DNA from: a virus
Lineage: Duplodnaviria; Caudoviricetes
Strand: one strand, 5' to 3'
IMG/VR virus record: IMGVR_UViG_3300044633_001982
Length of the DNA stretch: 64,000 nucleotides
Shown here: piece by piece, positions 15,639 to 53,010 of the stretch
How the letters are laid out: each line of letters starts with the position of its first letter
How positions within the stretch are numbered: position 1 is the stretch's first letter
Made by a program: the position numbers and the translations under genes
The notes under the pieces: model-generated
The model's input: the letters and a program-made list of their open reading frames with translations, nothing else
What the model was told of the DNA's origin: nothing
Databases searched by the model: none

Positions 15639-15656
15639 TTAATCAAAGCTTTGATT

Positions 15657-16547
15657 ATGAATATAATTTTCCAAATTAATGGTGGTATAGGTAAATGTAT
15701 TTTGGCAACCGCAGTTACCGAAGTAATTAAAAAAAAATACCCAAATTCTAAACTTATTGTTGTCTCAGGATATCCTGATGTTTTCTTAAACAATCCACAT
15801 GTTGACCGAGCGTTTAATTTTGGTGAACATTCTTATTTTTATTCTGACTATATTGAAGATAAAGAATTCAAACTTTTGGCTCATGACCCATACCTTGAAA
15901 CTAACCATATTAATAAAACAGAACATTTAATTGAAACTTGGTGTAAACTATTTGATTTAGAATATAATGGTGAACAACCAAACATATATCTAACTGAGAG
16001 AGAGATTAATTTCTTTTCAAGAAAATACACAACTGATAAACCAATCATGGTTATTCAAACTAATGGAGGGGTTGAACAAAATTTGAAATACTCTTGGGCT
16101 CGTGACATTCCATTCCATATTGTTGAAAGTGTGATTGAAAAATTTAAATATGGTTACACTATTTTTCACCTGAAAAGAGAAGACCAACCATCTTTCGCTA
16201 ATACAATCCCTGTCACTGATACTTTTAGGTCAGTTGCAACTTTAATTGCGATAAGTAATAAAAGATTTTTTATGGATAGTTTTGGTCAACATGTTGCGGG
16301 AGCTCTAAAATTAGAATCCACAGTTTTGTGGATTGTTAACTCACCAAAAGTATTTGGATATGAAACAAATAAAAATATTGTTTCAAACCAATTCACAAAA
16401 AAACCAGAATTAAAAATGTCATATTTAAACAAGTTTAACATAATGGGAGAACCTTTGGAATTCCCATATAATGATGAGTTTGAAATGTTTGACATTGAGA
16501 ACATATTAAATTCTTTAAGTAACAATGAACATCCCGATACCAAATAA
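15657..16547 (+). CDS. GT9 (heptosyltransferase)-fold glycosyltransferase-like protein, copy A
   Basis: N-terminal GGIGK.....KYPNSKL.V...P.VF.NNP.VD and C-terminal DSFGQHVAGAL (GT9-like DS...H.A.A). ATG at 15657 preferred over TTG at 15651. Confidence 0.7.
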   Translation: MNIIFQINGGIGKCILATAVTEVIKKKYPNSKLIVVSGYPDVFLNNPHVDRAFNFGEHSYFYSDYIEDKEFKLLAHDPYLETNHINKTEHLIETWCKLFDLEYNGEQPNIYLTEREINFFSRKYTTDKPIMVIQTNGGVEQNLKYSWARDIPFHIVESVIEKFKYGYTIFHLKREDQPSFANTIPVTDTFRSVATLIAISNKRFFMDSFGQHVAGALKLESTVLWIVNSPKVFGYETNKNIVSNQFTKKPELKMSYLNKFNIMGEPLEFPYNDEFEMFDIENILNSLSNNEHPDTK

Positions 16548-16911
16548 AATTGAAGTGAAATCGTCCCCAATTCACGGATTTGGGGTTTTCGCGATTGAAA
16601 AAATATTAAAAGATGAAATAATTGAAACCTGTTATTCAATTTTTTTCAAAACAGATTTAGGGTCAAACGATGATATATTACTAAAATATCGTTTCTCATA
16701 TCCTTGTGGGGCATCTCCAATAAAGTACGCAATACCTCTTGGGTATGGGTGTATTTACAATCATAGTGATGATAATAATGCAACATGGACATGTGATTCA
16801 GATAATGGAATGTATTATTTTATTGCGGTTAAAGATATTGAGCCAGGTGAAGAAATTTGTACATCATATGGAAAAAAAGAATATTGGGAATCAGTAAAAA
16901 AAATATATTAA
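16525..16911 (+). CDS. SET-domain protein-lysine methyltransferase
   Basis: SPIHGFGVFA, YNHSDDNNA and DIEPGEEICTSYG are the SET motifs. Confidence 0.9.
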   Translation: MNIPIPNKIEVKSSPIHGFGVFAIEKILKDEIIETCYSIFFKTDLGSNDDILLKYRFSYPCGASPIKYAIPLGYGCIYNHSDDNNATWTCDSDNGMYYFIAVKDIEPGEEICTSYGKKEYWESVKKIY

Positions 16912-16913
16912 AA

Positions 16914-17738
16914 ATGGAAAGATTATTTTTTCAGAGTTCACTACCACGAGCAGGTAGTACTCTACTACAAAACATTTTAGCTCAAAACCCTGACATATAC
17001 GCAACACCAACAAGTGGTGTTTTAGAGTTAGTGTACGCGGCTAGAGCAAACTATAGTAATTCACCTGAATTCAAAGCTCAGGACCCTGAACTTATGAAAA
17101 ACGCATTTTTATCTTTTTGTAAAGAGGGGTTAACTGGTTTTTATGAAAGTATTACTGATAAAAAATATGTGGTTGATAAAAGTAGAGGATGGGGTGTCCA
17201 TTATGGATTTTTACAACAAATTGTTGATAAACCAAAAGTTGTTTGTATGGTGAGAGACCTTAGAGATATCTATACCTCTATGGAAAAAAACTTTAGAAAA
17301 AATCAGCACAAAGATTTTGGGATTGTAAATCATTCGGATTTGAAAGGAACATCAACACCTAAAAGAATAGACATATGGGCAAACTCACAACCTGTTGGTA
17401 TGGCGATTGAAAGACTACAAGAAATTTTCAGACAAGGTATTAATGAAAATATGATGTTTGTTAAGTATGAGGATTTATGTTTGTATCCCGATTTAATCAT
17501 GAGAAAAATTTATGAATATTTTGAAATACCTTATTTTGAACATGATTTTGAAAACATTGAACAAATAACAAAAGAAGATGATGAAGTGTATGGTATTTTT
17601 GGGGACCATAAGATAAAAAAGACTTTAGAGTTATTACCATCGGATGCTCAAAAAATTTTAGGTTCAGATATTTGTGATTGGATTTATAATAATTATGGGT
17701 GGTATAACGAGATTTTTAAGTACCCTAAAAATATGTAG
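16914..17738 (+). CDS. PAPS-dependent sulfotransferase (Sulfotransfer_3-like), copy A
   Basis: 5'-PSB loop SLPRAGSTLL and 3'-PB motif VRDLRDIYTS; ATG at 16914 is the likely start. Confidence 0.88.
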   Translation: MERLFFQSSLPRAGSTLLQNILAQNPDIYATPTSGVLELVYAARANYSNSPEFKAQDPELMKNAFLSFCKEGLTGFYESITDKKYVVDKSRGWGVHYGFLQQIVDKPKVVCMVRDLRDIYTSMEKNFRKNQHKDFGIVNHSDLKGTSTPKRIDIWANSQPVGMAIERLQEIFRQGINENMMFVKYEDLCLYPDLIMRKIYEYFEIPYFEHDFENIEQITKEDDEVYGIFGDHKIKKTLELLPSDAQKILGSDICDWIYNNYGWYNEIFKYPKNM

Positions 17739-44830: not shown

Positions 44831-45760
44831 ATGGAGAATTATTATAATGTTTTAGGAGTTTCAGAAAATTCCACACAAGAAGATATTAAAAAGGCTTATA
44901 AAAAATTAGCAGTACAACACCATCCTGATAAAGGTGGGAATGAGGAAACATTTAAAAAAATTTCCGAAGCGTATGAGACCTTAGGTGACTCTGAAAAAAA
45001 ACAACAGTATGATTCACAGAGAAACAATCCATTTGGTGGTGGAGGGGATGGTTTTGACCCATTCAGTATGTTTTCAAATATGTTTAATAACATGGGGGGA
45101 GCTCAAAGAAAAAATCCCGATAAAATTGTTAATTTAAAAGTTGGTATTTTTGAGGCGTATAAAGGTGGAAGAAAAAAAGTTAACTATATGAGACATGACA
45201 AATGTGATGTTTGTTATGGTACTGGTGGGGACAAAGAAAACTGTAAATCGTGTCAGGGACAAGGGTTTTTCATACAGAGAGTTGGGAATGGATTTTTCCA
45301 AACTGTACATAAAACTACTTGTCAGGCTTGTAACGGTAAAGGTTTTAAATACACTAAGGCTTGTTATTCTTGTAATGGTAATACAACTATGGTAAAAATG
45401 CAAAACATCGATATTGAGTTACCAAGTGGAGTTGATGACGGTACTTTCTTTAAATCACATGGAGGTGGTGACTATGCTAATGGTTCATACGGTGATTTAT
45501 TATTTAAAGTTGAGGTTGTCCCTGAAAATAACTTCGAGAAAATAGGACCTGATTTAGTTTATAACTATGATTTTACTATCGAAAATCTTAACGATGATAA
45601 AATTACCATTCCACATCCTAACGGAAATTTACAAATTGATTTTCCGATTGATTTAGAAACAAAAAAACCTTTACGGGTTAAAGGTAAAGGTTTTTACAGA
45701 GAAGTTAGTGACTTGTATATAAAATTTAATTTTAAATACAAAAAATTAAAAGAAGGATAA
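44831..45760 (+). CDS. dnaJ: DnaJ (Hsp40) co-chaperone, full type I architecture
   Basis: J-domain with HPD, G/F-rich linker, four CxxCxG motifs, C-terminal substrate-binding domain. Confidence 0.93.
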
Positions 45761-45940: not shown

Positions 45941-46336
45941 TTAATTCTTAGCTTCGGGGACCACTAAGTACATCCAAGCGTAATCGTTATATTCTATTAT
46001 CATAAATAACACTCCTGTAATTTCAGAAGGTCCCATATAGAAGTTACAACTATTCCCACTAGAATCTTGCATTCGGTATTGGGCAACATTATCTTGTTCT
46101 GCAAGTTTACCAACAACATAATAATCTTGTTGAGATTTACTAAAAATAGTAACTTTGGAATCCGTAAGTTTAATTAGAATGTCACAATCATTTATTGTTC
46201 CGTTCCATACAATTTCATTTGTACTAAAGTCACGGTAACCAATATTAAATGTTCGGGCTCTCGCGTACTCAATGTCTTGAGAGAAATAGGGTAAAGAAAA
46301 AAGAAAGAAAAGAATTGATAAGATAAAGTTTTTCAT
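45941..46336 (-). CDS. Exported (signal-peptide) protein
   Basis: MKNFILSILFFLFSLPYFS|Q: Sec signal with Gln at +1 (Bacteroidota Q-rule). Confidence 0.7.
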   Translation of the reverse strand: MKNFILSILFFLFSLPYFSQDIEYARARTFNIGYRDFSTNEIVWNGTINDCDILIKLTDSKVTIFSKSQQDYYVVGKLAEQDNVAQYRMQDSSGNSCNFYMGPSEITGVLFMIIEYNDYAWMYLVVPEAKN

Positions 46337-46352
46337 TTGATTATATTTTTTA

Positions 46353-46383
46353 CAAATATAATAAAAAAAATTAATTTACCAAA
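46353..46383 (-). promoter_or_regulatory. Bacteroidota primary-sigma promoter TTTG-N19-TATATTTG
   Basis: Perfect match upstream of the exported-protein gene. Confidence 0.7.
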
Positions 46384-47249
46384 CTAATCAATTTATTAAT
46401 ATCAAACATTTCGTCAATAGACATATAAGGACATTCATGATTTGGACCTTCAAATGAATAGTCAAAAAGATATGAGTCAATTAACTTAACTGTATCAGTT
46501 GGTAACTTTGGTGATATATTATTATGTATACTATATCCAAAATTATTTGGTGATGTTCCTACCCATATAACATTAGATTTAAGATTTAGAGCTGCCGCAG
46601 CATGTTGTAAACATGAGTCAATTAACACCCTTTTGTCTGATGATAAAATGATTAAACATAAATCAACTGCGGACAATTCATAATCAATAACTTCGGCATT
46701 TGGAAGTTGTCTTGATGATTTTTTACAAATTTGAATTATATGGTGTGTTTCACTAAATTTATTAGCAATTGATGATGACACATCAAATGGGATATCTCTG
46801 GTCCATGAATAAGATTGATTTGAATTAAACGCGCCCCCATTTGTTTGAATGAGTAATATTGGTTTTTCTCTTTGCCATTTAGACAATGAACGTTTTTGAG
46901 AAATATTTAAACTAATACTTGGTGTTTGATTGGTATACTCAATCCCGAGTAAGTCACACCAATTTTCAATTAGATGTGATTTTTTAAGTATATGATTTGT
47001 TTGATAATATGGTTCTTGTCGAAAGATTATTGTGTCTTTATCTTTAATATAATCATCATAAAAATATTGAGTGGTACCTAATTTGTATACTCTATAAACT
47101 GAAGAATGGTTTAAGAATACTTCAGGGTATGAGGCGACTACTACAATTTTTCTGTCTTCGTATTTCTCTTTTAATGATGTTAATAGAGACGTGGCGGCAA
47201 TGTTTTTACCCAATCCTCCCTGTATGTGCCAAACAATATATTTTTCCAT
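46371..47249 (-). CDS. GT9-fold glycosyltransferase-like protein, copy B
   Basis: GGLGK, DSCLQHAAAAL; shares long motifs with 15657..16547 (YPxVFLN, TNHIxKxxHLIExWC, IQTNGG, YSWxRDIP). ATG at 47249. Confidence 0.7.
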   Translation of the reverse strand: MEKYIVWHIQGGLGKNIAATSLLTSLKEKYEDRKIVVVASYPEVFLNHSSVYRVYKLGTTQYFYDDYIKDKDTIIFRQEPYYQTNHILKKSHLIENWCDLLGIEYTNQTPSISLNISQKRSLSKWQREKPILLIQTNGGAFNSNQSYSWTRDIPFDVSSSIANKFSETHHIIQICKKSSRQLPNAEVIDYELSAVDLCLIILSSDKRVLIDSCLQHAAAALNLKSNVIWVGTSPNNFGYSIHNNISPKLPTDTVKLIDSYLFDYSFEGPNHECPYMSIDEMFDINKLISLVN

Positions 47250-47250
47250 A

Positions 47251-47694
47251 TTAATTTTTAGAACCAATTCTTATAAATTTATACCATACTCTTTCGTGGA
47301 AGAAATAAACAATTGGTTTAAGTAACAATTCTCCCACACCTAATAACGATGATAACTCAATTGATGCCCCCAATGAGTACGCAACTCCTACGGTAATTAA
47401 AGTACCTAAAATTCTGTAAGATATTGTTTTTAAAATATGTCTGGTTAATACCGATTCTTGTTTAACTGTTGTTATATATGCTACAGTGTTTTTAATCTCA
47501 CAGTGACCCTCACAACTGATATGCCATTTATATTCGTTTAATTCAGGTATCCAGTCTTTAGTAGTATAAGTGTGACCATCAACAACAATATCAGAAACTA
47601 AAATTTCAGAACCATTCTCAATCAATCTCCATCTATCACATTCATTAGTTGAGTGAGTGTTAAATCTTATTTGAAATGTTTTAATTTTTTTCAT
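47251..47694 (-). CDS. Small beta-domain fused to DUF2061-like membrane domain
   Basis: C-terminal KTISYRILGT...ELLLKPIVYFFHERVW matches the DUF2061 pattern. Confidence 0.7.
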   Translation of the reverse strand: MKKIKTFQIRFNTHSTNECDRWRLIENGSEILVSDIVVDGHTYTTKDWIPELNEYKWHISCEGHCEIKNTVAYITTVKQESVLTRHILKTISYRILGTLITVGVAYSLGASIELSSLLGVGELLLKPIVYFFHERVWYKFIRIGSKN

Positions 47695-48089
47695 AGTTTA
47701 CCTTCCAATTTCATTTGTTCTCTTATTTTAGTTGCAGAAATATCGTGTATTTCTTGAGGGGGAATTCTTTCAATAATATCATACCCAACACCTCTACCAA
47801 ATTCTATTGAACATATATCAGGTATTACCATCACTTTAACTCTATCACTCAATTCAGAATAGTGTGACTCAATATTACTCTTAACTTCTTGAGCGGTGAA
47901 TGGATTTTTTTCATCAGGTTCAATGTCTCTGATACAAATCAATACATTCTTACCTTCATCCATCGCTTGTTTAAATAACTCTTGGTGTCCTTTATGTAGT
48001 GGTTGCCATCTACCGACAAACATTGCAAATTGTCCATCTTTTGGTTTCAAAGATGACTGAACGTGAACTTTTTTATCCCAGTTACTCAT
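47691..48089 (-). CDS. HIGH-motif nucleotidyltransferase (cytidylyltransferase-like); candidate minimal ATP sulfurylase
   Basis: GRWQPLHKGH and ISATKIRE motifs; overlaps cysC. Confidence 0.75.
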   Translation of the reverse strand: MSNWDKKVHVQSSLKPKDGQFAMFVGRWQPLHKGHQELFKQAMDEGKNVLICIRDIEPDEKNPFTAQEVKSNIESHYSELSDRVKVMVIPDICSIEFGRGVGYDIIERIPPQEIHDISATKIREQMKLEGKL

Positions 48090-48514
48090 TTTTTATTAAA
48101 AGGTATTAAATCAAGACATTCGTCTATAGTTTTATTTGTTGTGTCAATATCAATAAAGTTTTCAGTTGGTTGTTCATACTCCTTAACAAAGTTTTGTTCT
48201 CTACCTCTGATTTCACTTGTGTGAACATAGATTTCACAAACTTCATTAGTTTCTTTTAATGAGTCCCTCATTCTTTTATAAGGAGCAACAACAGAAATTA
48301 CAACTGTAAATCCCTTGTGGTCTAAAAAACGAGCCAAATCAACAACAGATTGGATATTTTTAATTCTACCTTCAGGTGAATAATCAAAGTTTTGAAATAA
48401 CTCCCTCAAACCATCTCCATCAACATTAATACAATTATCTGAACACTTCTCAATTAAAGCATTCGCCAATGTTGTTTTTCCTGAGCCAGGTTGACCTGTG
48501 AACCAATAAATCAT
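48086..48514 (-). CDS. cysC: Adenylyl-sulfate (APS) kinase
   Basis: WFTGQPGSGKTT, VDGD.LR, DYSPEGRIKN, VISVVAPY. Confidence 0.88.
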   Translation of the reverse strand: MIYWFTGQPGSGKTTLANALIEKCSDNCINVDGDGLRELFQNFDYSPEGRIKNIQSVVDLARFLDHKGFTVVISVVAPYKRMRDSLKETNEVCEIYVHTSEIRGREQNFVKEYEQPTENFIDIDTTNKTIDECLDLIPFNKK

Positions 48515-48768
48515 AGTTGTGTATAAGTTTTACCTGATTGAATCGTATCGTTTATTTCCGTTAATTGAGTTTCAGTTAATGCTGACATAAACCAATCTTT
48601 ACTTTTCATAACTTCTAAATGTTTGTAATTTCTCTCGACTGTAGTTTTTTTAACTTCAATTTTTTCTGTTGGTAATTTAGAACCATCAATAATTCCATTT
48701 ATTAGTGTCACCGAATTAAAGGCTGAATTAATTGATTTAGTTGGGTTTGGTATTTCATCGTTTTCCAT
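48511..48768 (-). CDS. Small fibre-associated (assembly chaperone-like) protein
   Basis: SVTLIN.II...VERNYKHLEVM..KDW...I..GK.Y resembles, from memory, a small family found next to phage tail fibre genes; unverified. Confidence 0.45.
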   Translation of the reverse strand: MENDEIPNPTKSINSAFNSVTLINGIIDGSKLPTEKIEVKKTTVERNYKHLEVMKSKDWFMSALTETQLTEINDTIQSGKTYTQL

Positions 48769-48773
48769 AAAGC

Positions 48774-49589
48774 TTATTTATAATTAAATTTATTGAAGAA
48801 CCAATTATAGTGTTCGTATAATCTATTACTATTATCAGCACCTAATATTTCGTTATAATCTTCTTTTGGTTGAGATAATGTATTTTTTATTGAGTGGTCA
48901 CCAAAAATTCCGTGTATGACATCATTTTCAATAGTTAACTGCTCAATATTATTAAAGTCGTGTTGATAAAAAGGTATCTCCAAATAATCGTAAATCCGTT
49001 TTAACTCTTTATCAGGATTTGATGTTAGGTCTTCAAATCTAACAAAAAGAATATCTTTGTCATATCCTTGGTGAATTGACTCAAATAACCATTCTAATGA
49101 TGGACCAATTGGGGGAGATATTGAAAAATGGTCAACTCTTGATGTTGTTGTCATATTTTTTAATTCATTGACATTTACTAATAGAGGGTCTTTATGTGAA
49201 TTTTTTCTATAGTTTTTTTCCATTGAAGAGAAAATTGCCCTTAGGTCCCTAACCATACAAATAATTTTAGGTGTCCCGTAAAACCACTTTAAGAAATGAT
49301 AGTTACCTATCCACGCTCTACTCTTATCAATAACATAGGGTCTATCAGTTATGTTATCGAAAAAACCCGTTAAACCTTTTTCACAAAAACTTTTTAATCC
49401 CTCTCTCATTTCATCAGGATTTTGTGCTTTAAATGCGTCACCTGTTGTATATATGGTTCTAGCTTGTAAAAGTAGCTCAATCACTCCTGAAGTTGGTGTT
49501 GAATAAATTTCAGGATTTTGCATTAATATGTTTTGAATTAATGTTGACCCTGCTCTTGGTAATGATGCGTTAAAAAATATTTTCTTCAT
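48774..49589 (-). CDS. PAPS-dependent sulfotransferase, copy B
   Basis: SLPRAGSTL and VRDLRAIFSS; clearly paralogous to 16914..17738 (TPTSGV, FKAQ.P, EGLTGF, DKSR.W, GIFGDH). Confidence 0.88.
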   Translation of the reverse strand: MKKIFFNASLPRAGSTLIQNILMQNPEIYSTPTSGVIELLLQARTIYTTGDAFKAQNPDEMREGLKSFCEKGLTGFFDNITDRPYVIDKSRAWIGNYHFLKWFYGTPKIICMVRDLRAIFSSMEKNYRKNSHKDPLLVNVNELKNMTTTSRVDHFSISPPIGPSLEWLFESIHQGYDKDILFVRFEDLTSNPDKELKRIYDYLEIPFYQHDFNNIEQLTIENDVIHGIFGDHSIKNTLSQPKEDYNEILGADNSNRLYEHYNWFFNKFNYK

Positions 49590-49595
49590 AGGTTA

Positions 49596-49624
49596 ATATT
49601 AACCCACAAAACTAAAAATGTCAA
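49596..49624 (-). promoter_or_regulatory. Sigma70-like promoter TTGACA-N17-TAATAT for the sulfation cassette
   Basis: Exact consensus -35 and 17-nt spacer, between the fibre stop (49627) and the sulfotransferase ATG (49589). Confidence 0.65.
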
Positions 49625-49626
49625 AG

Positions 49627-52600
49627 TTAAGCTAATAAAACTTTGTAAGAATTTCCGTTAATTCTTATTTCCCAAGTCCTTGAGGAACTGCACGACTCAG
49701 TTGTTATAGTACCAATAGGAATTGAGGAACTACCTACAACAAATTGATTATTTCCAGTTGCCGTAGCATAACCACCAAGAATAATTGAATAATTATAATT
49801 TCCTGAATTTGTATTATTACCAATTGCAATATTTCGGTACCCTGAGGTGTTTTGATATAATGATTTATATCCAAGTGCAATATTTGATTGTCCATAGTTA
49901 GAAAATAAAACACAATAGCCCAATCCAATATTATGAGAACCACCATTACTTCCATACATTGATTTAAGACCTAAAAGAATATTATAACTACCACCGCAAG
50001 ACGTTCTTCCAAAACTATAATATCCAATAGCAATGTTGTGATTTCCAACAGGTACTGGACCAGTATAACCAATTGATTTAGTCCCTATTGCAATGTTATT
50101 ATTACCTCCATTAGCCCTATATAGAGCACCACTACCTATTGCAACATTTTCACTGCCATATACATTAAAAGTGAGAGTATTATGTCCTAAACTCACATTT
50201 AAATTTCCATAATAGTTGCAAGATTGAGATTCTTGCCCTATCGCAATATTACCTGAAAATTTTGAGTAATTTGTTGTGTAGTACGGCGCTCCTGAGTTTG
50301 TTGTACCACCATATAGGGAATTCAATCCGATTGCAATATTTGATAGTCTACTTTCACCACCAACCCAATCATGTAATGTATTGGGCCCAATTGCTATATT
50401 ATCAGATTTTTTGTCCGATTTACGAAGTGATTGATAACCTATCGCAATATTTCTAACCCCATCAGTATTATAACATAACGCCTGATTACCAATTGCAATG
50501 TTGTCTCTACCTGTACTTGTATAGTATAATGAGTTATATCCTAATGAAATATTGTTACTACCTGTTGTAATTTCTCCACCTGAATTTCTACCTAACGCAA
50601 TGTTGTGTACACCTGTAGTATTACTATATAAAGAACTTCTACCTATTGCAATATTATAATTACCCGTAAAATTGTTGGCCATTGTACCTCTACCTAACGC
50701 AACATTACCACAACCTTGGTTGGAATAACATCCTGAATTACTCATCAAAGCTCTTCTACCAATTGCAATATTTTCACAACCATTATTATTATTTAACATT
50801 GAACACCTACCAATTGCAACGTTAAAATCAGGTTTTGGTCCTTGTGCTCCTGTATTGTAATACAATGCCGCCTGACCAATTGCAATGTTATGGTCTGAAG
50901 CCGAAGTATTGTTTCTTAAAGAATCATATCCGATTCCAATATTACCAATACCACTTGTTAAACAATTCGAGTTTTGTCTTATAGCATTAGTCCCAATTGC
51001 AATATTCTTGGAACCGTTGGGATTACAATACAATGATGTAACACCTAAGGAAATATTATCATCACCTGCACATTTATTTTTTTGACTTTTGAAACCCAAT
51101 GCAATGTTACGAGAAAAACTAATTGAACATCCGTAACCATATAACGCATAATCACCTATACCGATATTACAATAACCTGTAGACAACTTTTTTAAAGAAT
51201 TAGTACCTATCCCAATATTACGAGAAATACTAGTCCCCTCACGTAATGATTTATCACCAATTGCAATATTTCCAAACATACATTGAGAGATATTATAAAG
51301 AGAAGAACTCCCCATAGATATGTTATTATTCCCACATGCTTGGTACATATTTTTATATCCAATGGATATATTGTAATTCAGGCCATAACATACTGATTGA
51401 GAACTGGACATAGATTTATGACCTAAGGATATGTTAAAATCACCTATGGTTTTACTTCTTAAAGACTTATACCCAATTGATGTATTACCTTGTCCAAGAT
51501 TACTTGTTTGTGACTGTTGTCCTATCGCAATGTTATTCCCTCCAGGAGCCACTCCACTAAATGCAACACCACCAATTGATATATTAGTACATACGTTAAA
51601 ATTACCTCTACCAACACGAACACCATTCACATTCAACGTTGGTGAGGTTGCGGCACCATCAAATGTTAACAATGATTCTGCAACTGCGCCTCCACTACCA
51701 TCAGATGTTAAAACCTGATTGTTTGAACCTGGCACCGTGAACTGAGGTGACCCACTAAAAACTAATGTATTTGTTGACGCTGAAGTAATTGATATATTAA
51801 CACCACTAAAATTTATAAAAGTTCCAGTATTTGCGGAGAATTGTGTGGTACCACTAATTCTTACAGATTGAAATGATGATGGTAAGTTTTGATATGTGGT
51901 TGCAGATATTGTAGTTGCAGTTAATCCTTGTAGTGAAGTATTTCCTGTTACGGTTAAGTTGCCATTAATAGTTCCACCACTTTTATCAAATTTATTACTT
52001 ATATCGGTTTGAATTGTTTGAATTATTGAACATCCGCTTAATGTACCACAAGTCAAAGCCGAATTGTCTGAAAATGGTGTTATTCCATAAGAATAATGTT
52101 GGGTACCTTCAGTGACTAAAGTTATTGAATGTGATTGATTACTAGTATTCGTTGCTCTTACTTTTACAACAATTCTGTCAGTTGTATTTATTGATGAACC
52201 CGAATAATATCCGTCCGTTAATTGCATTGATGGATTTGGGGAATTTGTAGTTACTGGAGCCGGGTCAGTTGTAACAAGTAGAGTTTCGGTTCCCCCTGTG
52301 GTTCTTAAATAAACCTCACAGAATATATCAAAAGATGCGTTACTATTTTGTTTGAAAGAATGAAGATAAAAGCTCCAATATCCTGCAGGTATTAGAGATG
52401 CGTTTGGATATCCAGTTGGTGTTTGAAATGAGGTAATCGTACTAGTTACTCCATTGTTAATTGTAACAGCCGTTATTTGTTGTGAATTTGTTGTTCCACT
52501 TGGACTAAATTCTCTATATGGTGGTTGTGAGTTTGATAAATTTAAATAATATACTTGACCTCCAGGTCCTCCTATTGGAAGTCCAGTAACCGTAAAAGTT

Positions 52601-53010
52601 CCTCCTGTATTATTTAAAAAGGTAATTTCTCCATTTGTATAAGTTCCTCCTGTAACATAAACATCGGTTGGTAAATTCTGATAAGTTGTTGCTGAAATTG
52701 TGTTAGCAGTTAGTCCACTTTGGAATATAGTCCCCCCCGATACAGTTCCACCACTTAACGGAAGATATACACCTGTTGTTCCTCCAGCAGGACCCCAATT
52801 GGCGTTACCTGAAGCATCACAAGTTAATACATAACCATTTTGTTCAGTTCCATTAGAATACGTAAATCCACTATTTATAGTAAGTCCCGATAAAAAGATT
52901 GGATTAACAGGAATGGCTCCACCGATACGATAAACAATACCTGTTGATAAGTCAGATTGTAAGACGTAATTATAAGAATCTTTAATTAATTGGTTTTTAA
53001 TATCGGCCAT
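49627..53010 (-). CDS. Tail fibre with NxAIG (YadA-head-like) beta-solenoid repeats, Cys-rich
   Basis: 1127 aa; YLPLSGGT and FDKSGGTINGNL fibre motifs; about 30 N(I/V)(A/S/G)(I/L)G repeats; C-terminal WEIRINGNSYKVLLA; no S74 chaperone. Confidence 0.82.
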   Translation of the reverse strand: MADIKNQLIKDSYNYVLQSDLSTGIVYRIGGAIPVNPIFLSGLTINSGFTYSNGTEQNGYVLTCDASGNANWGPAGGTTGVYLPLSGGTVSGGTIFQSGLTANTISATTYQNLPTDVYVTGGTYTNGEITFLNNTGGTFTVTGLPIGGPGGQVYYLNLSNSQPPYREFSPSGTTNSQQITAVTINNGVTSTITSFQTPTGYPNASLIPAGYWSFYLHSFKQNSNASFDIFCEVYLRTTGGTETLLVTTDPAPVTTNSPNPSMQLTDGYYSGSSINTTDRIVVKVRATNTSNQSHSITLVTEGTQHYSYGITPFSDNSALTCGTLSGCSIIQTIQTDISNKFDKSGGTINGNLTVTGNTSLQGLTATTISATTYQNLPSSFQSVRISGTTQFSANTGTFINFSGVNISITSASTNTLVFSGSPQFTVPGSNNQVLTSDGSGGAVAESLLTFDGAATSPTLNVNGVRVGRGNFNVCTNISIGGVAFSGVAPGGNNIAIGQQSQTSNLGQGNTSIGYKSLRSKTIGDFNISLGHKSMSSSQSVCYGLNYNISIGYKNMYQACGNNNISMGSSSLYNISQCMFGNIAIGDKSLREGTSISRNIGIGTNSLKKLSTGYCNIGIGDYALYGYGCSISFSRNIALGFKSQKNKCAGDDNISLGVTSLYCNPNGSKNIAIGTNAIRQNSNCLTSGIGNIGIGYDSLRNNTSASDHNIAIGQAALYYNTGAQGPKPDFNVAIGRCSMLNNNNGCENIAIGRRALMSNSGCYSNQGCGNVALGRGTMANNFTGNYNIAIGRSSLYSNTTGVHNIALGRNSGGEITTGSNNISLGYNSLYYTSTGRDNIAIGNQALCYNTDGVRNIAIGYQSLRKSDKKSDNIAIGPNTLHDWVGGESRLSNIAIGLNSLYGGTTNSGAPYYTTNYSKFSGNIAIGQESQSCNYYGNLNVSLGHNTLTFNVYGSENVAIGSGALYRANGGNNNIAIGTKSIGYTGPVPVGNHNIAIGYYSFGRTSCGGSYNILLGLKSMYGSNGGSHNIGLGYCVLFSNYGQSNIALGYKSLYQNTSGYRNIAIGNNTNSGNYNYSIILGGYATATGNNQFVVGSSSIPIGTITTESCSSSRTWEIRINGNSYKVLLA

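Follow-up and report, generated by a model that had tools for sequence, protein, structure and literature searches.

Dedicated supplies of activated sulfate for a single sulfotransferase are known from cellular systems, in which rhizobial NodP/NodQ provide 3′-phosphoadenosine 5′-phosphosulfate (PAPS) for NodH and Xanthomonas RaxP/RaxQ provide it for RaxST. In the PAPS synthases of Aquifex (2gks) and human (PAPSS1, 1x6v), ATP sulfurylase (Sat) and adenosine 5′-phosphosulfate (APS) kinase (CysC) are fused into one protein. In mycobacteriophages, virion proteins are glycosylated by phage-encoded transferases (Freeman et al. 2023, cited in PMC12619734), and the passages of PMC12619734 that treat this decoration describe neither sulfation nor such donor-synthesis genes. 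Here, a 64,000-nucleotide stretch of DNA from a virus of the Caudoviricetes (IMG/VR record IMGVR_UViG_3300044633_001982; the whole stretch is referred to as the window) was analyzed for a six-gene cluster, cassette B, which probably encodes a phage-borne sulfation module. Like NodPQ/NodH and RaxPQ/RaxST, cassette B appears to hold a private sulfate-activation pair beside its sulfotransferase, apart from assimilation; unlike those cellular systems of the CysD/CysN-CysC type, it is carried by a phage, lies beside a fiber gene, and has in place of CysD/CysN a miniature HxGH nucleotidyltransferase of 132 aa, here named NT. Pathways of this type are familiar; the enzyme of the first step and the phage and fiber setting represent new variants.

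In the proposed mechanism, NT would adenylylate sulfate (ATP + sulfate → APS + pyrophosphate [PPi]), and a short-lid kinase, a member of the APS kinase family, would phosphorylate the 3′-OH of APS to give PAPS, the same two-step chemistry as that of PAPS synthase. A protein that combines a p77-like domain with DUF2061 may act as an accessory of this sulfate-activating pair. A Sulfotransfer_3 enzyme with recognizable PAPS-binding motifs would then move sulfate from PAPS onto an acceptor, while its partner, with the fold of glycosyltransferase family 9 (GT9), most likely attaches a sugar that then receives the sulfate, or else acts on the same substrate alongside it. The most probable substrate would be located on the neighboring fiber or on another virion protein, as one of its glycans or residues. 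The window, which is low-GC (~30%) DNA of a large phage, also encodes tail-fiber, virion-protein, SbcC-like nuclease, DnaJ, and D12 methyltransferase genes. The six genes of cassette B lie on the (−) strand, 37 nt behind a gene for a 1127-aa fiber/spike protein, in the following order:

49627-53010, (−) strand: tail fiber/spike, 1127 aa (PHROG tail spike / virion structural protein, E 1e-56 to 1e-61)
49596-49624, (−) strand: promoter-like hexamer pair TTGACA-17-TAATAT, a consensus match only, in the 37-nt spacer between spike and sulfotransferase genes
48774-49589, (−) strand: PAPS-dependent sulfotransferase, 271 aa (PF13469, PF00685)
48511-48768, (−) strand: 85-aa open reading frame (ORF), no family match
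48086-48514, (−) strand: short-lid APS kinase, 142 aa (PF01583)
47691-48089, (−) strand: HxGH nucleotidyltransferase (NT), 132 aa (PF01467)
47251-47694, (−) strand: p77+DUF2061 fusion, 147 aa (PF09834 at residues 87-137)
46371-47267, (−) strand: GT9-fold protein, 298 aa (AlphaFold model and Foldseek)

By their coordinates, the 85-aa ORF and kinase, the kinase and NT, and NT and the DUF2061 gene are each joined by 4-base start/stop overlaps. For the GT9-like gene, an ATG start at 47249 is more likely than the TTG at 47267 because of the family alignment. The genes and their order, as listed in a first-pass annotation made from the sequence alone, were borne out, each gene being present on the (−) strand. 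The same annotation had stated that reductive sulfate-assimilation genes are missing from the window, and indeed CysD, CysN, CysH, CysQ, and the Sat catalytic domain were all undetected there by tblastn (E ≤ 0.01), while PF01507 (the PAPS_reduct/ATP-PPase fold that includes CysD-type sulfurylase) matches no cassette B protein. Its further claim that the cluster supplies a sulfation donor and does not serve sulfur assimilation is supported by synteny, by the gene content of a complete relative, and by cellular NT loci; this PAPS-supply reading is judged highly likely from the sequences. Phage cysC and cysH are usually read as assimilatory, which would make cassette B a set of auxiliary metabolic genes enhancing assimilatory sulfate reduction and the synthesis of cysteine in the host during infection. 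This interpretation has the slimmest chance of those weighed here, given that the window contains no homolog of CysH, CysD, CysN, or Sat and that the module is closely accompanied by sulfotransferases and glycosyltransferases. The relative concerned, G001 (293,850 bp, 100% complete according to CheckV), has an NT that is 96-97% identical and possesses neither a PAPS_reduct-family gene (CysD/CysH) nor Sat.

The neighborhood survey suggested in the first-pass annotation was carried out by tblastn and yielded 86 NT loci; because the module recurs in them, the gene order of cassette B is not a matter of chance. An APS kinase gene is located directly upstream of NT in 84 of the 86 loci (the other two end at a contig edge), and DUF2061 follows NT in 67. 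The sulfotransferase family occurs in 49 loci and the GT9-like family in 44, the latter always with the former, and three different gene orders were found. Two sulfotransferase families that are not related to each other accompany the kinase-NT-DUF2061 core, the second being PF03567, a member of which precedes the kinase in loci L017-L020. In 27 loci, NT is adjoined by a gene for a small HAD phosphatase (113-122 aa; e.g., L017 7658-7999 and L053 7623-7991) with weak matches to PNKP-like 3′-phosphatases; this protein could be a phosphatase for 3′-phosphoadenosine 5′-phosphate (PAP) or a pyrophosphatase, clearing PAP or PPi, and the window itself has no HAD gene. One observation speaks against a sulfation module: the 297,164-bp phage genome G176 (99% complete; the contig of locus L055) carries kinase-HAD-NT and no sulfotransferase of either PF13469 or PF03567.

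Gene fusions join the two proposed activating enzymes directly. Among 150 cluster representatives, 23 APS kinase-NT fusions, 11 NT-APS kinase fusions, and one NT-DUF2061 fusion were identified, so that NT and kinase, like Sat and CysC in PAPS synthase, occur as single proteins, and in both orders. In one of them (P0141), an NT domain 54% identical to that of cassette B is fused to a full-length APS kinase that scores 188.9 bits against TIGR00455 (cut-off 138.7). Other fusions of the NT domain combine it with a methyltransferase in two kinds or with DHHA1 (P0227, P0270, and P0248). The NT-DHHA1 fusion P0248 was not used as evidence, as it lies on a phage contig without a nearby kinase.

The kinase of cassette B matches PF01583 with 68 bits (cut-off 21.1), and its best solved relatives are the archaeal APS kinases 7yq0 and 8a8h. 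It scores 77.6 bits against TIGR00455, below the cut-off of 138.7, because the match spans only residues 2-99. The P-loop GQPGSGKTT (GxxGxGK[ST]) and VDGDGLR (DGDxxR) are present, as is the APS-binding core of CysC, N..[FY]S..R..N, in which NFDYSPEGRIKN aligns with NLGFSPEDREEN of PAPSS1. The P-loop, DGDxxR, and N.DYSxxGR..N are at least 90% conserved in 61 phage kinase homologs. Two features count against the proposal: the segment ISVVAPY, in which Ala replaces Ser of the family consensus SLVSPY (SxVxPY), and a lid (KGLYK...FTGID) about 18 aa shorter than in three canonical kinases, which also distinguishes the protein from PAPS synthase. The shortened lid is a trait of the whole phage kinase family. 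Prediction of a complex between kinase and NT gave a score of 0.00, which counts neither for nor against binding.

NT matches PF01467 (33.6 bits) and keeps the ATP-binding motifs HxGH and ISxTxxR. In 111 homologs, the motifs GRWQPLHKGH, YGRxVGY, and ISATKIR are near-invariant, the first and third conforming to the NadM-type patterns GRxQPxHxGH and ISxTxxR. Considered together with its constant partnership with APS kinase, NT is predicted with considerable confidence to be an ATP sulfurylase, and the most economical reading is that of a minimal enzyme that took over this function by non-orthologous displacement. By analogy, the pair would follow the logic of PPAT and dephospho-CoA kinase, in which a substrate is adenylylated and then 3′-phosphorylated. 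The first-pass annotation had called PAPS synthesis by cassette B self-contained; that description hinges on NT being an ATP sulfurylase, which we infer strongly.

Structural and profile comparisons nevertheless supply points against this assignment. The modeled fold of NT (pLDDT 93.4) is nearest to archaeal NMNAT (Z 9.9) and PPAT (Z 9.8), and by sequence NT is likewise nearest to NMNAT/PPAT rather than to Sat. When hhalign was run with NT against a Sat, only the HxxH region was aligned, at 2.5% probability. Since both sequence and fold are nearest to archaeal NMNAT and PPAT, NT is, as far as alignments and a predicted model can tell, a member of the superfamily that contains Sat and not of the Sat family. 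Comparison with the ATP sulfurylase 1v47 gave Z 7.8 over 116 residues (VIA-align) and with four other sulfurylases Z 5.9-6.3, a likeness at the level of the superfamily only, although these alignments extend across the entire NT model; with PAPS synthase, NT shares the HxGH superfamily at Z 6.2-7.8. Against the Sat profile PF01747, NT scored 17 bits (cut-off 24.3), confined to the HxxH stretch, and a profile search of the PDB with NT returned no Sat at E ≤ 10. With 132 aa, NT has no room for the N-terminal PUA-like domain and in this respect, as in its greater proximity to NMNAT/PPAT, differs from the sulfurylase part of PAPS synthase. A proposed equivalence between GRxVGY of NT (residues 98-103) and the GRDHAG loop of Sat was rejected as unsupported because both the PDB profile search and hhalign failed to align them.

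That NMNAT and PPAT are the nearest solved relatives of NT, and that NT fails Sat-family membership, could alternatively mean that APS is supplied by CysDN or Sat of the host and that NT is an NMNAT-like enzyme or a non-catalytic, regulatory partner of the kinase. A PAPS_reduct-family gene (CysD and/or CysH) is indeed available in 72 of 151 sampled Bacteroidota. Host-supplied APS is nonetheless rather improbable, in view of the NT-APS kinase fusions in both orders and of the cellular genomes described below, which have NT and APS kinase and no Sat or CysD. Furthermore, NadM-type NMNAT (1f9a, 1m8k) and PPAT, the best matches of NT in fold and sequence, share with it GRxQPxHxGH and ISxTxxR, but only the N-terminal two thirds of NT match NadM: the profile alignment breaks off at position 81 of 121 and does not reach the family-specific half, where a short loop with near-invariant YGRxVGY stands in place of the substrate-binding half. 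NT remains far under the NMNAT cut-offs (33 vs 181.2 bits for TIGR01527; 39 vs 127 bits for NF002243), and, unlike NadM and PPAT, it is consistently found in the context of APS kinase and never with NAD or CoA genes.

Homologs of NT are abundant. Close homologs number >7,500 at 90% clustering, with 1,288 representatives at 50% clustering, and 145 IMG/VR contigs, the longest of 373 kb, carry NT. Relatives in the AlphaFold DB are labeled only ‘cytidyltransferase-like’ or, when fused, ‘adenylyl-sulfate kinase’. A scan of species-representative cellular genomes yielded 40 NT loci from Flavobacteriales, Nitrospiraceae, Acidobacteria, Saccharibacteria, marine group III, Poseidoniia, and thaumarchaeal archaea. 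In 33 of these loci, NT has APS kinase as its immediate neighbor; genes for CysQ, Wzx, and sulfotransferases stand behind NT in 12-13, and CysD or CysN is adjacent to NT in none of the 40. In a metagenome-assembled genome (MAG) of a marine Flavobacteriales, the order is CysC (231.8 bits), NT, a DeoC-like gene, CysQ, Wzx, and three sulfotransferases, with NT occupying the place of CysDN. The Acidobacteria locus combines a full kinase and NT with a weak sulfotransferase-like neighbor, and in the marine group III locus, the kinase is of the short-lid form known from the phage.

Two side observations concern these cellular loci. In some Flavobacteriales, a 233-aa gene lies between NT and CysQ (L086 8534-9235); its motif KASGGIKT we take to resemble that of deoxyribose-phosphate aldolase, and the protein has no relationship to p77/DUF2061 of the phage. 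A marine group III archaeon (L122 4948-9609) has the short-lid kinase and NT between genes for S-adenosylhomocysteine hydrolase, S-adenosylmethionine synthetase, and SHMT, which places the activated-sulfate pair inside a methyl-cycle cluster.

The distribution of NT among cellular genomes is complementary to that of known sulfate-activating enzymes. Of 20 NT-bearing genomes, 17 contain APS kinase and match neither PF01507 nor PF01747 at 1e-5, among them a 4.53-Mb Acidobacteria record titled ‘chromosome: 1’; the remaining three have Sat. As a baseline, 53 APS-kinase-bearing genomes among the 151 sampled Bacteroidota were considered: 49 have PF01507, three more have Sat, and the lone exception is an NT-bearing genome. 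Two considerations detract from this pattern, namely, that most of the cellular genomes used are incomplete MAGs and that NT, predicted to be present in two genomes with APS kinase and without PF01507 (G058 and G090), was absent from both, with Sat in its stead. The latter outcome fits the rule that APS kinase is always accompanied by some sulfate-activating enzyme. In two Nitrospiraceae MAGs (L106 and L107; G161:C7:84709-85230 and G159:C1:411965-412486), NT adjoins a gene for a CysH-like reductase with no APS kinase adjacent to NT; both genomes, which are among the three with Sat, encode a Sat fusion. On balance, the chance is somewhat better than even that NT, a NadM/PPAT-like protein of ~130 aa, represents a third class of ATP sulfurylase, that together with APS kinase, often in its short-lid form, it is the sole means of sulfate activation for hundreds of large phages and for many Acidobacteria, marine Flavobacteriales, and archaea of marine group III, and that it feeds sulfation of glycans or proteins of the virion fiber here.

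A further possibility is that kinase and NT activate some other substrate, such as a phosphorylated sugar to be converted to the nucleotide-sugar donor of the GT9-like protein, or that they make a different 3′-phospho-adenylyl donor. A GT9-like gene is present in the same operon, and HldE, which supplies GT9 enzymes, follows such a logic of kinase plus nucleotidyltransferase. This is very improbable, considering that the residues with which CysC binds APS are present in the kinase, that relatives of NT are fused to bona fide CysC or placed with CysQ and sulfotransferases, and that the kinase-NT core occurs without a GT9-like gene in 42 of the 86 phage loci.

The p77+DUF2061 protein, a putative accessory of the sulfate-activating pair, matches PF09834 with 55.6 bits (cut-off 23.1), and its p77-like N-terminal domain stands alone as a 77-aa gene in 25 related loci. 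DUF2061 is labeled ‘predicted membrane protein’ in Pfam, which is doubtful because no clear transmembrane segment emerged from a Kyte-Doolittle hydropathy scan, in which no 19-residue window reached ≥1.6. DUF2061 was found in nine of the 151 Bacteroidota genomes and within 1 kb of sulfate-activation genes in four of these nine; in two loci (L087 3362-4216 and L089 3309-4170), it is fused to or abuts CysC. In the Bacteroidota operons, CysD, CysN, and CysQ come after a DUF2061-CysC fusion, or the order is DUF2061-CysC-CysD-CysN-CysQ; these operons thus resemble cassette B in uniting DUF2061, APS kinase, and a (here predicted) sulfate-activating enzyme. They differ from it in that cassette B has NT for CysDN and has DUF2061 fused to p77, not to the kinase; they also include CysQ, a role for which the HAD phosphatase is a candidate in some phage relatives.

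The sulfotransferase matches PF13469 (65.9 bits, cut-off 27) and PF00685 (45.6 bits), and its sole solved relatives by sequence are protein-tyrosine sulfotransferases (TPST1, E 3e-5). Residues P11, R12, G14, S15, and T16 of the 5′-phosphosulfate-binding loop, K89, and R114/S122 of the 3′-phosphate-binding site are at least 95% conserved in 36 homologs. In the alignment to TPST1, PRAGST and RD..R....S have counterparts, K89 falls on a conserved Lys, and the position of the catalytic Glu of TPST corresponds to an invariant TPTSG. The 298-aa partner has no Pfam match at E ≤ 0.01, including PF01075. Its AlphaFold model (pLDDT 82.7) was compared to the PDB by Foldseek, with 3tov as the best match (E 1.6e-9, TM 0.62-0.64), followed by WaaF (1psw), WaaC, and TibC; GT9 accounts for all of the first 24 matches and for 31 of the first 33 (E 1.6e-9 to 2e-5). 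The earlier designation ‘GT9-like’ is therefore justified as far as the fold is concerned. TibC, a cytoplasmic protein heptosyltransferase with this fold, modifies a repetitive surface protein, so that a repeat-rich fiber offers a possible analogy to its substrate; unlike GT9 heptosyltransferases, the 298-aa protein lacks a PF01075 match and is always paired with a sulfotransferase.

The fiber has no Pfam match. Its C-terminal ~650 aa consist of ~17-residue NIAIGxxSLYxNTxG repeats, which resemble YadA/Hep_Hag heads, and its composition includes 22 Cys, 22% Ser+Thr, and only 3.7% Asp+Glu. The fiber is a candidate sulfate acceptor or a mere structural neighbor of cassette B. The idea that the repeat tyrosines serve as TPST-like sites found little support, as Tyr occupies the repeat position in seven of 18 repeats. 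Against fiber sulfation, acidic flanking residues occur at just 10 of 65 fiber tyrosines, which are, by sequence, unlike classical tyrosine-sulfation sites, and the tie between sulfotransferase and fiber is one of adjacency alone.

An acceptor among virion glycans or proteins is favored because the module recurs beside spikes and giant structural genes and because a GT9-fold enzyme such as TibC exists, and this assignment is tentative, at somewhat less than an even chance. Alternatively, PAPS could be made and used as proposed, with the host envelope (lipopolysaccharide, capsule, or surface glycoprotein) as acceptor, a modification that could block superinfection or aid release. Several observations are in agreement with an envelope acceptor: the cellular NT loci serve Wzx-dependent sulfated polysaccharides, GT9 enzymes are classically heptosyltransferases of the lipopolysaccharide core, a spike homolog lies upstream within the flanks of only 13 of the 86 loci, and a signal-peptide protein follows cassette B. 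Envelope sulfation is unlikely, though to be taken seriously, since genes for Wzx or another exporter were not seen in cassette B, BLASTP detected no similarity between the sulfotransferases of the phages and those of the cellular loci, and the module recurs beside giant structural genes.

A full-text literature search returned no account of the module, of a function of DUF2061 or its role in sulfate activation, or of phage sulfation. A 2025 paper on large freshwater ‘moraphages’, for which Bacteroidota are the predicted hosts, reports DnaJ/DnaK and four groups of core glycosyltransferases; no word that starts with ‘sulf’ appears in its text. If the proposed functions are correct, one small gene would fill a pathway hole in genomes that keep CysC, CysQ, and sulfotransferases without a known source of APS, and phage ‘cysC’ would have to be re-read as donor supply for sulfation, not sulfur assimilation. 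Large freshwater phages, probably of Bacteroidota, would bring their own sulfation chemistry beside their fibers, with likely consequences for adsorption, host range, or virion protection; virion sulfation would be a modification for which no report was found for any phage in the literature searched. A two-protein PAPS synthase of ~270 aa could also become a tool for enzymatic sulfation.

With respect to the transcriptional architecture of cassette B, the first-pass annotation had placed a promoter ahead of the sulfotransferase gene. The consensus pair TTGACA-17-TAATAT is present there, but matches of this type are no commoner in the region than in shuffled sequence (41 vs 44.1 ± 7.6), and the Bacteroidota-like promoter motif TAGTTTTG showed no enrichment either. 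The 85-aa protein, previously described as fiber-associated, has no Pfam, PHROG, or NCBIfam match; its association with the fiber is one of synteny, in that its gene occurs in eight of the 86 loci, each with a spike homolog, in the order spike-s85-sulfotransferase or spike-sulfotransferase-s85. The phrase ‘embedded among fiber-assembly genes’ was overstated: the spike and 85-aa genes are fiber-linked, whereas the neighboring genes for DnaJ, D12 DNA methyltransferase, and DUF932 are not. By blastn, cassette B matched none of 50,697 deposited phage genomes; its DNA is present in at least 20 DNA runs from lake-water metagenomes and was found in no public RNA run. Further features of the window are as follows:

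45941-46336, (−) strand: 131-aa protein with a signal-peptide-like N-terminus, 34 nt downstream of cassette B
44831-45760, strand opposite to cassette B and adjoining it: DnaJ (J, zinc-finger, and C-terminal domains)
15651-16547, (+) strand: GT9-like gene of cassette A, paralog of the cassette B protein
16857-17738, (+) strand: sulfotransferase of cassette A, paralog of the cassette B protein

The two cassette A proteins are ~38-39% (GT9-like) and 52% (sulfotransferase) identical to their counterparts in cassette B, and the pair has no PAPS module of its own. The PAPS module of cassette B plausibly serves both sulfotransferase/GT9 pairs because a cassette-A-type pair directly abuts APS kinase-NT-DUF2061 on its upstream side in loci L006-L009 and L011. 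The 131-aa protein may be encoded by the final gene of the transcription unit, with a weak link to cassette B, and a homolog was found near the module in one of the 86 loci. In locus L010, a 96%-identical copy of this protein is encoded behind the kinase-NT-DUF2061 core.

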